64,000 nucleotides of DNA from Candidatus Actinomarina sp. (GTDB lineage Bacteria > Actinomycetota > Acidimicrobiia > Actinomarinales > Actinomarinaceae). Positions within the stretch are counted from its first letter, which is position 1. Each line of letters begins with the position of its first letter. The notes under the pieces were generated by a model. It was not told the origin of the DNA, made no database searches, and was given only the letters and a program-made list of their open reading frames with translations. Below are positions 950-51,841 of the stretch, one piece after another. Where the stretch lies: NCBI GenBank assembly GCA_016777845.1, contig JADHQS010000001.1, forward strand, positions 3,573-67,572. Direction: 5' to 3'. Made by a program: the position numbers and the translations under genes.

Positions 950-3900
950 TTGTTGTCCGCTGTTCAGAATTCTAGACTTTCATTTGCAAAAATTCCTAAA
1001 GTTCTAGATATTCCAGATTTATTAATTATACAAAAAGATTCTTTCAAGTGGTTTATTGAAGAGGGATTAAAAGAAATTTTAGATGAGATATCACCCATTG
1101 AAGATTTCTCTGGTAGATTCTCCTTAGAATTTCTAAATCATTACTTTGAAGAGCCATTAAAAACTCTTGAAGAATGTAAAATAACAGACTCTACTTATTC
1201 ACAACCTTTATATGTAACAGCTCAATTTTTAGATCGTGAAACTGGTCAAATAAAACAACAAACAGTTTTTCTTGGTGATTTTCCAATTATGTCGGATACT
1301 GGAACTTTTATAATCAATGGAACCGAAAGAGTTATTGTTAGTCAGTTAGTCAGGTCTCCTGGAGTTTATTTTTCTCAAGAGATTGATAAAACATCTGACA
1401 AGGAAGTTTTCATTGGCAAGATGATCCCCGGAAGAGGAGCATGGTTAGAGTTCGACACAGATAAAAGAGACACTCTTGGTGTAAGAGTTGATAGAAAAAG
1501 AAGACAGCACATCACTGGCTTTTTGATGGCCCTTGACGTTATTGAGAATAAAGAAGATGCTATAGAGTTATTAGGTGATTACCCGTCTGTAAGAAATACT
1601 ATTGAAAGAGATCCAGATACAACAAGGGAAGCAGCGCTTATAGATTTATACAGAAAACTACGACCAGGAGAACCTGCAACAGTTGAGTCTGCTAGGAACT
1701 TGGTAAAACAATTGTTCTATACCCCTAAAAGATATGACCTAACAAAAGTTGGTCGATACAAAGTTGAACAGAAGTTAGGAAGACAATACGGCGAAAAAGA
1801 TGCTGAATCGTATACAACTGAAGATGATGGAATGTTAAGAATTGAAGATATGATAGATTCTATTAAGTATGTCATCGCTCTACATGCAGGTGAAGACAGC
1901 TTTATTAATAATAAAGGCAGTGAAATTCCTGTTCGTCTAGATGATATTGATCACTTCGGAAATAGAAGAATTAGAACAGTTGGTGAACTAGTTCAAAATC
2001 AAGTAAGAGTAGGTCTTAGTAGATTAGAAAGAGTAGTTAGAGAGAGAATGACAACTCAAGAACCTGAAGCGATTACACCTCAGTCACTAATTAACATTCG
2101 TCCAATTCAAGCATCGTTAAAAGAATTTTTTGGAACAAGTCAATTAAGTCAGTTCATGGATCAACCAAATCCAATTGCAGGCTTAACCCACAGAAGAAGA
2201 CTATCAGCTTTAGGTCCAGGAGGCTTGTCAAGAGAAAGAGCAGGTTTTGAAGTTAGAGACGTCCACCCTTCACACTACGGTAGGATGTGTCCAATTGAGA
2301 CACCAGAAGGTCCAAATATTGGTCTAATAGGAACCCTTGCTACATATGGTCGAGTAAATAAATTTGGGTTTATCGAGACTCCATATTGGAAAGTTGAAAA
2401 TGGAGTTGTTAAAACTAATAAAGCAGTTTATTTAACTGCTGCTGAAGAGGATAATTTTACAATTGCACAGGCTAACGCTCCTTTAAATGATGATGGAACA
2501 TTCCAAAACAAGAAAGTTCTCTCCAGACAAAATGGAGGAGAAGTTGCATTCGTGTCAGACAAAGAGATAGATTTTATGGATGTCAGTCCTAAACAAATCT
2601 GCTCTGTCACCACTGCTCTTATCCCATTTCTTGAACATGATGACGCAAACAGAGCATTAATGGGATCAAACATGCAGAGACAAGCAGTCCCATTAGTTAA
2701 AACTGAAGCACCATATGTAGGAACTGGAATGGAAGAAAATGTTGCAAGAGATTCTGGCGAATCTCTTATTTCTAATATTTCCGGTACTGTTGAAGAAGTA
2801 TCCGGTGATGAAATCTCAGTTAAAGAAGAAGGAACTAATAAAAAATATAGATTTGAAGTTTTAAAATTTAAAAGGTCTAATCAGGCTACAAGTTGGAATC
2901 AAAAGCCACTTGTTAAAGTTGGAACAAAAGTTAAACCAGGGGATGTACTAGCTGATGGTCCAAGCACTCAAGGAGGAGAGTTAGCTCTTGGTAAGAATTT
3001 ACTTGTTGGATATATGCCTTGGGATGGATACAACTTTGAAGATTCAATTGTAGTATCTGAACGACTTGTAAAAGAAGATGTCTTAACTTCAGTACACATA
3101 GCTGAACATGAAATAGAAGCCCGTGATACAAAACTTGGTGAAGAAGAAATAACAAGAGATATTCCCAATGTAGCTGAAGAAGTTCTTATGGACTTAGATG
3201 AAATGGGAATTGTTAGAATTGGAGCCGAAGTATCACCAGGAGATTATCTTGTTGGGAAAGTTACCCCAAAGGGAGAAACTGAGTTAACACCTGAAGAAAG
3301 ACTTTTGAGAGCCATTTTTGGTGAAAAAGCAAGGGAAGTTAGAGACACCTCTTTGAGAGTTCCTCATGGTGAAAGAGGGAAAGTTATAGATGTTCAAATT
3401 TTGAAGCGTGATGATGGAGCTGATTTACCTCCAGGCGTTAATCAAAAAGTTAGAGTTTATGTCGCAATACAAAGAAAAATTCAAGTTGGTGACAAATTAT
3501 CTGGTAGGCATGGAAACAAAGGTGTTATATCAAAAATTCTCCCAATTGAAGACATGCCTTATATGGAAGATGGAACTCCTTTAGATATTATGCTTTCACC
3601 CTTAGGTGTTCCAAGCAGAATGAATCTTGGTCAAATTTTAGAGACACATCTTGGTTGGGCAGCTGATCAGGGTTGGAAAGAATACAAAGGGAATACAAAA
3701 GCATCTAGTGGTGCAAAACCTGGAACCCTTATTTCAACACCAGTATTTGATGGGGCAGATGAAGATGAAATACATGAAATTTTAAGAAATGTAAATCCAA
3801 ATAGAGATGGAAAATTGATGGTTGATGAAAATGGTAAAGCAACTCTTTATGATGGTCGCACAGGGGAGTCTTTTGATTCAAGAGTTACTGTTGGGTATAC

Positions 3901-9196: not shown

Positions 9197-11284
9197 ATGA
9201 CTAGAGAAGTAGATTTAAACAATTTAAGAAACATTGGAATTATGGCTCATATTGATGCCGGTAAAACAACTCTTACTGAAAGAATCTTGTATTACACAGG
9301 TAAAACCTACAAGATTGGTGAAGTCCATGATGGAGCCGCTGTTATGGATTGGATGGAGCAAGAACAAGAACGAGGTATTACTATTACCTCAGCTGCAACT
9401 ACATGTAGTTGGAACAAGCACACTATTAATATAATTGATACACCTGGCCACGTTGATTTTACTGTCGAAGTTGAAAGATCTTTAAGGGTTCTTGATGGTG
9501 CAGTTGCAGTATTTGATGGTGTAGCTGGAGTTGAGCCGCAGTCAGAAACTGTTTGGAGACAGGCAGACAAATATAATGTTCCAAGGATTTGCTTTATAAA
9601 TAAATTAGACCGAACTGGTGCAGATTTTAATTTTGATGTTCAATCAATCATAGACAGGTTAGAAGCGAAGCCAGCAGTTCTCCATATTCCAATTGGGTCT
9701 GAAGCAGATTTTGTTGGTGTTATTGATTTAGTAGAAATGAAATCTCACACATGGTCTAAAGATGACGGTTCTGAGTGGGACATAACAGATATTGCTGAAG
9801 ACATGCTAGAGGAAGCAAATACAAAAAGACAAGAGCTTCTAGATGTAGTAGCTGAAGCAGACGATGATGTATTAGAAAAATACTTTGCTGATGAAGAGCT
9901 CACTGTTGAAGATATCAAAAAAGCTATTAGAAAAGGTACTTTAGGGGGCATGTTTGTTCCAGTACTTGCTGGAAGTGCATTCAAAAATAAAGGAGTTCAG
10001 CTTCTACTTGATGCTGTTGTTGATTATTTACCATCACCTCTTGATATCGAAGATGTAACAGGTTTTAAACCTGGAGATGAAGAAAATGAGATTTCAAGAT
10101 CTCACAGTGATGAAGAGCCATTTTCTGCATTAGCTTTCAAAGTAGTTAGCGATCCACATGTAGGTAAGCTTACATATTTTAGAGTCTACTCAGGAACTCT
10201 TAACAAAGGGGACAAAGTTACCAACACTACAACAGGAAAAGAAGAGAGATTAGGAAGAATTTTAAGAATGCATTCCAACTCTAGAGAAGATATAGATTTT
10301 ATTTGCACAGGAGACATTGTTGCAGGTGTTGGCTTAAAGAATGCTAAAACTGGAGATACCTTATCAGACTCATCGCAACTTATTCAACTAGAGTCAATGA
10401 CTTTTCCTGAGCCTGTTATTTCTGTAGCTATTGAGCCTAAATCAAAAGCTGATGAAGAAAAATTATCAGAAGGTTTACAAAAACTAGCTGAGGAAGATCC
10501 AACTTTCCGTGTTCAATCTGATGAAGAAACTGGACAAACAATTATATCTGGAATGGGTGAATTACATTTAGACATCTTAGTTGATAGATTAAAGAGAGAA
10601 TTTAAAGTTGAAGCAAATATTGGAAAACCTCAAGTAGCTTATCGAGAGGCTTTAAAGAAGAAAACAGATGTAGAAGCAAAATATATAAGACAAAGTGGTG
10701 GTCGTGGTCAATATGGTCACGTAATTATGGAACTAGAACCTATTGAAGATGGGTATGAATTTGTAGATTTAATCAAAAGCGGAAGAATACCTAAAGAATA
10801 TATACCTTCTGTAAATGCAGGAGTTGAAGCTGCAATGGAAACTGGAGTTCTAGCTGGATATCCATTAGTAAATATAAGAGCAACCCTTAAGGATGGAACT
10901 TATCATGACGTTGACTCTTCAGAAATGGCTTTTAAAATTGCTGGATCAATGGCACTTAAAGATGGTGCAAAAAAAGCTGGTGTTAAATTGCTCGAACCAG
11001 TTATGACTGTAGAGGTGGTAACACCAGAAGATTTCATGGGAGATGTTGTCGGAGATCTTTCCTCAAGAAGAGGAAAGATAGCTGAAATGGGGCAAAGAGG
11101 ATCTGCAAAGGTTGTCAATGCTAAAGTACCGTTATCAGAAATGTTTGGATACGCAACTGATTTGCGTTCTCGAACTCAAGGCCGTGCAACATTTACGATG
11201 CAGTTTGATAGTTATGAAGACGTACCAGACAGCATAACTAAAGAAATAACTGCGAGTATTCGTGGAGTAGAGGTAGAAGTTTAA
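9197..11284 (+). CDS. fusA: elongation factor G
   Basis: 695 aa; [10 protein letters not shown]-loop, DTPGHVDF. Confidence 0.97.
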
Positions 11285-30883: not shown

Positions 30884-30911
30884 ATTAGTTTCTTATAATT
30901 ATAATAACGAG

Positions 30912-31082
30912 CAATTAGCGCCAGGCCTTGAAAAAGGTGACGAGGAAGTATGTTATCGAAACATTCGGCGGATGCATACTCGGCTCTGCAGTCGTAATAA
31001 ATTGTTTAAAAACATAGAGAGATCTGTGAACAGAAACAATTTAAAGCAGTCTTTATTACAACCTGCTCGTTGGAATGGAGAT
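30912..31082 (+). ncRNA. glmS ribozyme (GlcN6P-responsive self-cleaving riboswitch) in glmS 5' leader
   Basis: A/GCGCCAG cleavage-site motif at 30917-30924, P1 CCUU-GAAA-AAGG, UGACGAGGA, UUAUCGAA-ACA-UUCGGCGGAUGC, P2 strands AGUAUG/CAUACU covarying relative to Bacillus GGAGG/CCUCC. Confidence 0.85.
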
Positions 31083-50551: not shown

Positions 50552-50566
50552 ATTTGTATATCTTAA

Positions 50567-50581
50567 TGCAAATTATTTGCA
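50567..50581. promoter_or_regulatory. perfect 7-1-7 inverted repeat TGCAAAT-T-ATTTGCA (candidate Fur-family operator)
   Basis: Located in the 39-bp gap between the Fur-family gene stop and the ecfT start; 7-1-7 architecture as for Fur/PerR/Zur boxes. Confidence 0.5.
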
Positions 50582-50590
50582 ATAAAAGAT

Positions 50591-51001
50591 TTATTTACAT
50601 TTTTTGCAATACCCTGAGTATACGAAGTGATTTGTTATCTCTCTAAAATTTGTTTTACTAGTTATTAGATCATTTACTTTTTCGGATGTTTTTATATCAA
50701 GATCTGAAATGTCTCCACATGACTCACACACAATATGTATATTTGAATGTACATCTTTTACAAAATATAATCCTGACCCATGTACCTGGTGAGAATGTTC
50801 AATTAGATTTATATTTTCTAAAAGTTCTAGAGTTCTATAAACAGTAGCCAAGTCAATATTTTTATCTTTTTTTAATGAAAGTTTATGTAGCTCTTCAACA
50901 GTAAAGTGTTTATGCCCAGATGTTCCAAGAATTTTGCAAACGACTTCTCTTGCATTAGTTATTCTTTTACCTCTTTTTCGTAATTCATTAACGAAATCCA
51001 T
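50591..51001 (-). CDS. Fur-family metalloregulator (Fur/Zur/Nur/PerR)
   Basis: MDFVNELRKRGKRITNAREVV... winged-helix N-terminus, HSHQVHG and C-terminal CxxC...CxxC; the ORF-track upstream start (51031) adds 10 aa not typical of Fur proteins. Confidence 0.8.
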   Translation of the reverse strand: MDFVNELRKRGKRITNAREVVCKILGTSGHKHFTVEELHKLSLKKDKNIDLATVYRTLELLENINLIEHSHQVHGSGLYFVKDVHSNIHIVCESCGDISDLDIKTSEKVNDLITSKTNFREITNHFVYSGYCKKCK

Positions 51002-51035: not shown

Positions 51036-51509
51036 ATGAAAAAAAAGTTTCTTAGAATATTAAACAGGTATAGTTTGCTCTATCTTCCCACGGGATGGGT
51101 TATTGGACTGGGTATCATTTTTATTGCTTATGAGCCAATAACTGTTCTTTATTTTCTTAGTTTATTTGTTTTGGGTATATTTGGATTCCTTATTCTTTAT
51201 ACATCAAATAGAAGAATGGTTGATGACTCTTATAATATTTCAGATTACCAATACTCAATAATTGAGTTTTACTCAGACTACTGACTAGGTTGCACTGCTT
51301 CAAAGTTCATAGTTGATGAATTTAAAAAGAAAAATCCAGACGTTTATTTTGTTTCTATAAATGCGAGTAAGCAAAAAGATCATGAGTTTATTGATATATA
51401 TAACTTAAACAACACTCCAACATATGTATTGATTAATAATGAAGGTGAAAAGCTTGGAAGAAGAGTTGGTACATTTTATCCTAAGTATTTCGAAAATAAA
51501 ATAGGTTAG
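51036..51509 (+). CDS. candidate selenoprotein: two-TM membrane-anchored thioredoxin with in-frame TGA (51282-51284) at the first active-site position (U-L-G-C replacing C-G-P-C)
   Basis: Single frame: MKKKF...2 TM...IIEFYSDY-TGA-LGCTASKFIVDEF...VYFVSINASKQKDHEFIDIYNLNNTPTYVLINNEGEKLGRRVG aligns residue-for-residue with thioredoxin (VVDFWAEWCGPCK...LTVAKLNIDQNP...IRGIPTLLLFKNGE...KVG); TGA is a genuine stop for neighbours (rpsQ, infA, rimI). Confidence 0.5.
51303..51323 (+). promoter_or_regulatory. candidate bacterial SECIS-like hairpin AAGUUCAU-AGUUG-AUGAAUUU
   Basis: 8-bp stem (one G.U) with GU-containing apical loop; loop G lies 30 nt downstream of the UGA. Confidence 0.3.
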
Positions 51510-51841
51510 GAAACTTTGTCTCCAAGCTCTGCTTTGTCGGATGGCTGAAGTAATAGTACATCTCCATTTTCAGAAATTGATCCTAAGACTAAGCACTCAC
51601 TCATAAATGGTCCTATTTGTTTATTTCCAAGATTGATAACTGCTATACAAGGCTTTTCATGAAGTTCATTTAATTTATAGTTTGTTATCTGTGCACTGGT
51701 CTTTTTAGTGCCAATTAAATCACCAAAATCAATTGTCAGTTTGTATGCTGGTTTTTTAGCTTCTTCGAAAATTTCTGCATTAATTATTTTTCCGACACGA
51801 ATATCTAATTCAAAAAAATTAGTTGATTTATCACTTTCCAT
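51506..51841 (-). CDS. tRNA-binding domain protein (CsaA/Trbp111/MetRS C-terminal-like OB fold)
   Basis: 111 aa; DIRVGKIINAE... and ...PFMSECLVLG pattern of the EMAP/tRNA-binding family. Confidence 0.75.
   Translation of the reverse strand: MESDKSTNFFELDIRVGKIINAEIFEEAKKPAYKLTIDFGDLIGTKKTSAQITNYKLNELHEKPCIAVINLGNKQIGPFMSECLVLGSISENGDVLLLQPSDKAELGDKVS

Follow-up and report, generated by a model that had tools for sequence, protein, structure and literature searches.

The stretch of Candidatus Actinomarina sp. DNA analysed here (64,000 nucleotides, hereafter the window) contains a thioredoxin-like (Trx-like) gene whose reading frame is interrupted by a TGA at the position of a catalytic cysteine. 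The first-pass annotation of the window had proposed that this UGA encodes selenocysteine (Sec) in a UxxC redox motif. The frame runs from an ATG at 51036 to a TAG at 51507-51509 and comprises 157 sense codons with the TGA as the only internal stop, in agreement with that annotation in every detail. The protein begins with MKKKFLRILNRYS, codon 83 lies in the context IIEFYSDY-*-LGCTASKF, and the peptides encoded past the UGA include FIVDEFK, NPDVYFVSINASK, DHEFIDIYNLNNTPTYVLINNEGEK and VGTFYPK. The features of the locus are listed in Table 1.

Table 1. Features of the Trx-like locus, in window coordinates
Feature	Position	Strand	Basis
Complete candidate selenoprotein gene	51036..51509	+	single frame, 157 codons, U at 83, TAG stop
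N-terminal membrane anchor (about residues 12-57): NxYS motif, then two hydrophobic helices as a hairpin	51069..51206	+	AlphaFold2 model, hydropathy, charge
Thioredoxin-fold domain (about residues 70-157)	51243..51506	+	PF00085, AlphaFold2 model, Foldseek
In-frame UGA, codon 83, predicted Sec opening the U-L-G-C redox motif	51282..51284	+	TGA in 85/85 loci; aligned with Cys of CxxC homologues
Predicted resolving Cys, codon 86 (TGC)	51291..51293	+	Cys invariant throughout the wider family
Candidate bacterial selenocysteine insertion sequence (SECIS) hairpin, AAGUUCAU-AGUUG-AUGAAUUU	51303..51323	+	conservation, covariation, frozen synonymous sites
Pro128 (CCA) of the T-P-T motif, aligned with the thioredoxin cis-proline loop	51417..51419	+	invariant column
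Fur-family regulator, divergent	50591..51001	-	PF01475, 82.9 bits

The window has a GC content of 33.8% and uses the standard code. TGA was found to be the normal terminator of rpsJ, rplC, rplP, rpsQ, rplX, rpsH, secY, infA, rplM, rimI and other genes, which extended the earlier observation that it is a true stop for rpsQ, infA and rimI. Past these TGA-terminated genes, the next in-frame stop was only 0-33 codons away, and a long in-frame continuation (74 codons) past a TGA was unique to the Trx-like open reading frame (ORF) among the credible genes of the window. Downstream of the TGA there was no in-frame ATG, GTG or TTG before a TTG at codon 132, so that, as had been claimed, no alternative in-frame start preserves the redox motif. 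The ORF list held no ORF of at least 30 amino acids within the portion beyond the TGA.

Orthologues were found in single-cell and metagenome-assembled genomes of Candidatus Actinomarina and Actinomarinales (OCS155). The sample comprised 12 loci from genomes, 3 from contigs and 71 from metagenomes, the last retrieved with a peptide pattern that left out codon 83, and GOS contigs (AACY02...) contained the Trx-like gene itself. The results indicated that codon 83 was TGA in all 85 loci covering the site (the window counted), down to about 50% protein identity, a constancy well outside what chance would produce. The Cys codon 86 was synonymously variable in the same loci (TGT in 50, TGC in 35). 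Stops were present exclusively at codons 83 and 158 in 70 of the 71 distinct gene sequences, and the ratio of nonsynonymous to synonymous substitution rates (dN/dS) after the UGA was 0-0.41, the same as before it (Nei-Gojobori against the window, with synonymous divergence up to saturation). From the stop pattern and the dN/dS after the UGA, we concluded that the 74 downstream codons are translated in frame.

When about 5.8 billion proteins were searched with a word index, about 30 full-length homologues of 157 residues and 52-98% identity were recovered; each came from a short contig and had Trp at position 83. At face value, these sequences pointed to a TGG-to-TGA change, and thus to a recent Trp-to-stop pseudogene, or to an assembly or sequencing error; the first-pass annotation had itself named a recent Cys-to-stop pseudogene as the alternative. 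The DNA behind seven of the 'W' proteins, which represented six distinct lineages (27-38% GC, including two Actinomarinales clades), carried TGA at codon 83 in every one. The gene caller had used translation table 4 on short AT-rich contigs and so produced a false W (loci L001-L003, L087, L089-L095; proteins P0001-P0031, P0055, P0058, P0060, P0083, P0148). The W at position 83 in public protein sets is therefore a code-4 gene-calling artefact, and the TGG-to-TGA nonsense mutation was rejected. On long contigs the gene was annotated as an 82-residue stub (P0043, P0196, P0198, P0202); in public catalogues it is thus either this stub or a complete protein whose catalytic residue is wrongly given as Trp. 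The invariant TGA, the 70 genes that were otherwise intact and the low downstream dN/dS likewise argued against decay or error, and the loci did not come from one contaminated source, being drawn from single-cell genomes, metagenome-assembled genomes and GOS, Tara, Red Sea and JGI samples. Neither a recent Cys-to-stop pseudogene, nor an ORF disrupted in varied ways, nor a sequencing error at 51282-51284, each of which had been raised beforehand, was what these independent loci revealed, and we give a pseudogene or error practically no chance of being the explanation.

The predicted protein was then compared with known folds. With Cys in place of the stop, residues 71-143 matched the Pfam Thioredoxin family PF00085 at 24.1 bits, a small margin over the gathering score of 23.5, and the match to PF13098 (U replaced by C) scored 23.5 bits, under its gathering score of 27. 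The NCBIfam model of canonical TrxA, TIGR01068, gave 20.6 bits versus a cutoff of 96.8, and the motif, Y-U-L-G-C, is not of the WCGPC type. An AlphaFold2 model built with 22 orthologues (mean pLDDT 80.5) began with two long helices (2-31 and 34-57) and continued with a beta-alpha-beta-alpha-beta-beta-alpha domain. In this model, residue 83 follows the strand 73-79 and stands directly before helix 84-99, with U83 and C86 at the helix start, which is the place of CxxC in thioredoxins. The best Foldseek matches in the PDB were all thioredoxins (E about 3e-7), and nearly all of the top 50 were thioredoxins or thioredoxin fusions, with a target-normalised TM-score of about 0.7 for the stand-alone ones. 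P128 belongs to the invariant T-P-T motif and occupies one of just three columns without variation when the wider family is aligned; we take it to correspond to cis-Pro76 of E. coli Trx. Collectively, the model, PF00085 and Foldseek bore out the two transmembrane helices and the thioredoxin fold proposed at first, as well as the placement of the TGA exactly at the first Cys of the Trx motif, aligned with the Cys of CxxC and preceding helix alpha-1.

The anchor was also conserved. N10, Y12 and S13 were invariant in the Actinomarina proteins, and N10 and S13 were nearly so in the wider family. In Actinomarinales, the N-terminus carries a charge of +4 or +5 from Lys and Arg before helix 1, and the inter-helix loop 0-1 (+5 and an uncharged loop in the window protein); most of the wider family is the opposite, with 0 at the N-terminus and +2 to +4 in the loop. 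This charge bias weakly suggests that both termini, and hence the Trx domain, are cytoplasmic in the Actinomarinales clade, which implies opposite predicted topologies inside one family.

A profile search over 1.84 billion protein representatives defined this wider family, whose members have about 160 residues, a short N-terminus with NxYS, two hydrophobic helices and a Trx domain. Among 33 aligned full-length members, 22 had CxxC and 11 had 'W'xxC. All three Cys forms that were checked had genuine Cys codons in their DNA. One of them, P0053 (locus L096; SIYCAGC; 32% GC), lies in a gene order identical to that of the window: abhydrolase, ABC ATPase, CbiQ, Fur / Trx-like / CsaA-like tRNA-binding protein, FMN reductase, acyltransferase, YceI and NUDIX. 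Because this positional orthologue has Cys where the UGA stands in the window, the pair represents the classical selenoprotein signature. The comparison of orthologues that had been recommended, with Cys expected in some and TGA in others, thus gave TGA in all Actinomarinales and Cys in homologues including the syntenic one. The flanking proteins of the two loci were 39-63% identical, whereas the two Trx-like proteins themselves, Sec form versus Cys form, shared only 26% identity; judged from these sequences, the Trx-like protein diverged much faster than its neighbours, alongside the Sec/Cys switch. The pair offers a clean natural experiment on Sec-to-Cys exchange and SECIS loss.

Two further Cys-form loci, L088 (1136-1705) and L098 (2737-3318), are unrelated, with 55-57% GC, and one is from Chloroflexota. 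In both, a TPMT/TehB-family methyltransferase gene follows the two-helix Trx-like gene with a 4-bp overlap; enzymes of this family have been associated with the methylation of selenium and tellurium. A further candidate, L086, was a spurious partial match within an unrelated protein and was discarded.

These comparisons also bear on true termination at the UGA, by which the gene would encode a functional 82-residue two-helix peptide and the Trx-like part would be untranslated or separately expressed. Annotation pipelines give exactly this 82-amino-acid product on long contigs. Bacterial Sec insertion is inefficient, so some ribosomes would probably stop at the UGA and free the 82-residue two-helix peptide, which would then probably be a by-product. 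A separately expressed domain is at odds with the lack of a start codon between the UGA and codon 132, and the downstream codons were in frame and under purifying selection in every orthologue. Moreover, the Trx core makes sense only when joined to beta-1, which is encoded upstream of the UGA, and the Cys orthologues are uninterrupted full-length proteins. We therefore consider true termination very improbable. In summary, a recent pseudogene, a sequencing error and termination alone were excluded because the TGA is invariant and the sequence downstream is under purifying selection.

We further analysed the RNA sequence following the UGA, for which a search for a bacterial SECIS had been suggested. 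Counted from the U of UGA, nucleotides 22-29 can pair with 35-42 to form a hairpin with the apical loop AGUUG (51311-51315). Its seven inner pairs were unbroken in 37 distinct Actinomarina sequences, and pair 25-39 occurred in three states, namely U-A (28), U-G (5) and C-G (4). The C-G state corresponds to a Phe-to-Leu replacement together with a synonymous GAA-to-GAG change. In other Sec lineages, the encoded peptide is different (K-P-x-V-D-R versus K-F-I-V-D-E) and the hairpin lies in the identical register. The loops of five other Sec lineages were of the GUUG type in four cases (three AGUUG and one CGUUG), and the fifth was a 7-nucleotide loop, CCGUAGA. In an alignment of 14 sequences from six Sec lineages, 96.9% of the cells were paired, versus 15-46% when the 3' partners were slid by 1-3 columns, and changes on both sides (compensatory changes) occurred in five of the seven pairs. 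RNAalifold independently predicted the same helix. No hairpin was found at the corresponding position in the syntenic Cys orthologue or in the Chloroflexota Cys form.

The synonymous sites gave a similar picture. In 71 Actinomarina genes, the mean synonymous entropy was 0.97 bit over 65 conserved degenerate codons, and zero synonymous variation was observed only at codons 91-94 (TTC ATA GTT GAT), which cover the top of the stem and the loop. These frozen codons are not the preferred ones: in the window genes, 21% of Phe codons are TTC and 29% of Ile codons are ATA. Zhang and Gladyshev (in 2005) reportedly described the bacterial SECIS as a hairpin with a G in the apical loop, 16-37 nucleotides from the UGA. 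The candidate hairpin, with G31-U32 in its loop and 26 nucleotides from the UGA to the loop, fits this description. The suggested SECIS search was thus borne out as far as a conserved, covarying hairpin at SECIS distance is concerned; no Rfam SECIS model matched it.

For the Sec machinery, a 2026 preprint on this group ('Actinomarina, resolved', 10.64898/2026.04.03.716425) examined 84 complete Actinomarina genomes and reported tRNA-Sec (selC), selA and selD in every one, together with a divergent selB. The same work (10.64898/2026.04.03.716425) found no selenouridine synthase and no SECIS hits in those genomes and predicted about 5 selenoproteins per genome, mostly uncharacterised, naming SelD, a 78-amino-acid family and a K07090 family. 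Its text and supplement, the latter without a selenoprotein list, mention no thioredoxin-like selenoprotein. None of selA, selB, selC and selD lies within the window or the fetched flanks. A scan of the window and 13 related loci with ARAGORN gave no tRNA; these regions do not contain selC. Starting from a GOS SelD read with the MRLT prefix described in 10.64898/2026.04.03.716425, we located, on marine contigs of 32-33% GC (L099, about 9929-10954, and L100-L115), a SelD gene whose frame is interrupted by TGA (MRLTQYSHGSG-U-ACKL). These contigs (LUML01, LULZ01 and ENA contigs) are from assemblies other than those that gave the Trx loci. This SelD is annotated as 341 amino acids with W on short contigs and as 317 amino acids, N-terminally truncated, on long contigs. 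The SelD of this lineage is thus also affected by the use of code 4 in gene calling on short contigs, and selenoproteins missed by annotation could be screened for cheaply by looking on short AT-rich contigs for a false W replacing a catalytic Cys.

Read-through without Sec was the remaining alternative. In this case, a standard amino acid would be inserted at the UGA, either by a near-cognate tRNA for Trp, Cys or Arg or by a suppressor peculiar to the lineage, and the hairpin and the C at position +4 would just slow termination. Codon 84 was CUN in 71 of 71 Actinomarinales sequences (CTA in 61), so that the base after the UGA (window 51285-51287 for codon 84) is fixed as C, although UUR makes up 57% of the Leu codons in the window genes. 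UGA-C is a leaky termination context, and the hairpin is weak, which would suit such a mechanism. However, other Sec lineages with G or A at +4 keep the same hairpin, and CxxC homologues have their catalytic Cys at the aligned position, the Sec/Cys signature noted above. A Trp or Arg here would abolish the redox centre, which is hard to square with the conservation of the site. In addition, the lineage is reported to have a complete Sec machinery, with about five selenoproteins in each genome (10.64898/2026.04.03.716425). Taken together, these results make read-through without Sec unlikely.

The conserved UGA, the Cys counterparts, the hairpin and the reported Sec machinery support the original proposal of a selenoprotein with UGA at the catalytic Cys of a UxxC motif, and we consider it highly probable, on sequence evidence, that codon 83 encodes Sec in this Candidatus Actinomarina Trx-like protein. 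In the proposed mechanism, the UGA would be decoded by Sec-tRNA(Sec) delivered by SelB, and SelB would be recruited by the mRNA hairpin within the coding sequence, 22-42 nucleotides from the U of UGA, through its AGUUG loop. The full-length product is predicted by the model to combine the N-terminal two-helix membrane anchor with the Trx-fold domain, placing a redox centre, U83-L-G-C86, at the N-terminus of helix alpha-1, and to have the usual cis-Pro loop, T-P128-T. By analogy with CxxC and UxxC thioredoxins, it may act as a selenol/thiol-disulfide oxidoreductase, in which the selenolate of U83 would attack an oxidised substrate and the resulting selenenylsulfide would be resolved by C86. The charge distribution weakly suggests that it would act at the inner membrane face and might be recycled by the cytoplasmic thioredoxin reductase system.

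Several observations weigh against this interpretation. Selenium incorporation and the protein itself are predicted from sequence, and support for the Sec machinery comes from an unreviewed preprint and from selD contigs of matching composition. The PF00085 score is marginal and the TIGR01068 thioredoxin equivalog lies far under its cutoff. The window hairpin is weak, with a minimum free energy of -6 kcal/mol (z = +0.3 for the 50 nucleotides after the UGA versus shuffles); because the fold was no better than that of shuffled sequences, we used conservation and covariation as evidence rather than stability. A permissive scan of 51230-51400 gave no Rfam SECIS match and only a chance snoRNA (E = 4). 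The Cys form L088 still has a 5-6 bp hairpin, and the candidate SECIS of the Actinomarina-type selD is without an obvious AGUUG-like loop. Some of the constancy of the loop may stem from the V-D dipeptide, which is itself conserved, and independent compensatory events are few because the changes separate mainly two clades.

We compared the gene with known systems. Treponema denticola has a Sec-containing thioredoxin, and proteins of this kind (Sec-Trx) are soluble, canonical thioredoxins. The Actinomarina protein resembles Sec-Trx in its Trx fold and in the Sec that would replace the attacking active-site Cys; it differs in being non-canonical by TIGR01068, in having ULGC rather than a CGPC-like motif and in its two-helix anchor. 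Sec-Trx is listed in PMC1088965 and PMC2398784. With TlpA, ResA, CcmG/DsbE and TxlA/HCF164/Slr1796, the protein shares a Trx-fold domain tethered to the membrane. TlpA/ResA/DsbE/TxlA-type proteins have a single N-terminal anchor and a domain outside the cytoplasm, whereas the Actinomarina protein has a helical hairpin and an N-in/C-in charge bias, which would put the domain in the cytoplasm. Proteins of the wider family matched the TlpA, ResA, DsbE and slr1796 models weakly, all far below cutoff, and the Actinomarina protein itself had no TlpA/ResA/DsbE-type profile match in NCBIfam. The SECIS of the E. coli fdhF type is a hairpin within the coding sequence shortly 3' of the UGA, with an apical-loop G-U at +23/+24 and a bulged U. 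The Actinomarina hairpin is similar in being part of the coding sequence not far 3' of the UGA, and in the G-U of its apical loop; it differs in that the G-U is at +31/+32, the 7-8 bp stem is AU-rich with no evident bulged U, and Rfam gives no match.

Previous studies reported UxxC Trx-like families among the commonest selenoproteins of ocean metagenomes, namely Trx-like 1, 2 and 3 and GOS_C (PMC2398784), and a Sargasso Sea set (PMC1088965). The Actinomarina gene shares with these families the Trx fold, a Sec as first residue of UxxC, Cys homologues, a SECIS-like hairpin after the UGA and an origin in surface-ocean bacteria; its two-helix anchor, organism and SECIS are not described in either paper. 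'Trx-like 3' is marine-enriched, has a weak match to cd02950 (TxlA) and comprised 212 Sec versus 183 Cys sequences (PMC2398784). The Actinomarina family may plausibly be the same as 'Trx-like 3', with which it is consistent in type of motif, in enrichment in the sea and in weak similarity to TxlA. Within the part of Dataset S1 of PMC2398784 that was covered, the Actinomarina sequence was not found; it is absent from Dataset S2, and the family is therefore not GOS_C. Among curated NCBIfam selenoprotein families with a Trx-like fold (PMC13188914), such as SaoT NF040730, TsoX NF045809, HUIPC NF047660 and VPGUxxT NF041383, as among the curated NCBIfam selenoprotein families generally, the protein matched none, and its sole NCBIfam match at E <= 0.01 was TIGR01068. 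'Actinomarina, resolved' (10.64898/2026.04.03.716425) deals with the same organism group.

UxxC Trx-like selenoproteins from ocean metagenomes are thus already known. What is new is that the gene has been assigned to Actinomarina, that the two-helix anchor and the wider family have been recognised, that a Sec form and a Cys form are seen in syntenic positions, that a SECIS candidate has been defined and that the annotation artefact has been exposed. Few free-living marine bacteria are as abundant or as streamlined as Actinomarina, and the retention of a Sec pathway in a 1.1-Mb genome needs explaining. The Trx-like gene would be a concrete, universally conserved client of that pathway with a recognisable fold, a ULGC site and a candidate SECIS, where before there were anonymous predictions only. 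More speculatively, the proteins may form an undescribed, phylogenetically widespread family of two-helix membrane-anchored Trx-like proteins with NxYS, in which Sec forms only about 20% identical share one SECIS design (register and AGUUG loop). Sec would then be ancestral with repeated conversion to Cys, or the gene would have moved horizontally with its SECIS, and in Actinomarinales an inverted topology would place the selenol centre at the cytoplasmic face. We offer this wider scenario tentatively, as one that is possible but rather doubtful.

The gene upstream had been described as a divergent Fur/PerR regulator compatible with a role in redox stress. It is indeed a divergent Fur-family gene, its start codon being about 34 bp from that of the Trx-like gene, and this adjacency is kept in the Cys orthologue loci L096 and L097. 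The NCBIfam models of Fur and PerR gave equal scores, both under cutoff, so the two could not be distinguished; a link of the Trx-like gene to metal or oxidative stress is possible, and the redox-stress link is only suggestive for this reason. On the other side, the Trx-like gene and a convergent csaA-like tRNA-binding gene (51506-51841, - strand) overlap at their stop codons (51506-51509). This overlap and the start spacing of about 34 bp are typical of extreme genome streamlining. The gap between CbiQ and Fur is about 40 bp in the window (50552-50590), and the syntenic L096 has a 309-amino-acid CbiM there (2565-3494); from the sequence, the energy-coupling factor (ECF) cobalt/nickel transporter locus of this genome appears to be without CbiM. 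Elsewhere, the only element that an Rfam scan of the whole window returned at gathering threshold was a glmS ribozyme (30906-31053, 90.9 bits) upstream of glmS, and the real glmS start is probably further downstream than annotated because the listed ORF start, 30972, falls inside the ribozyme.

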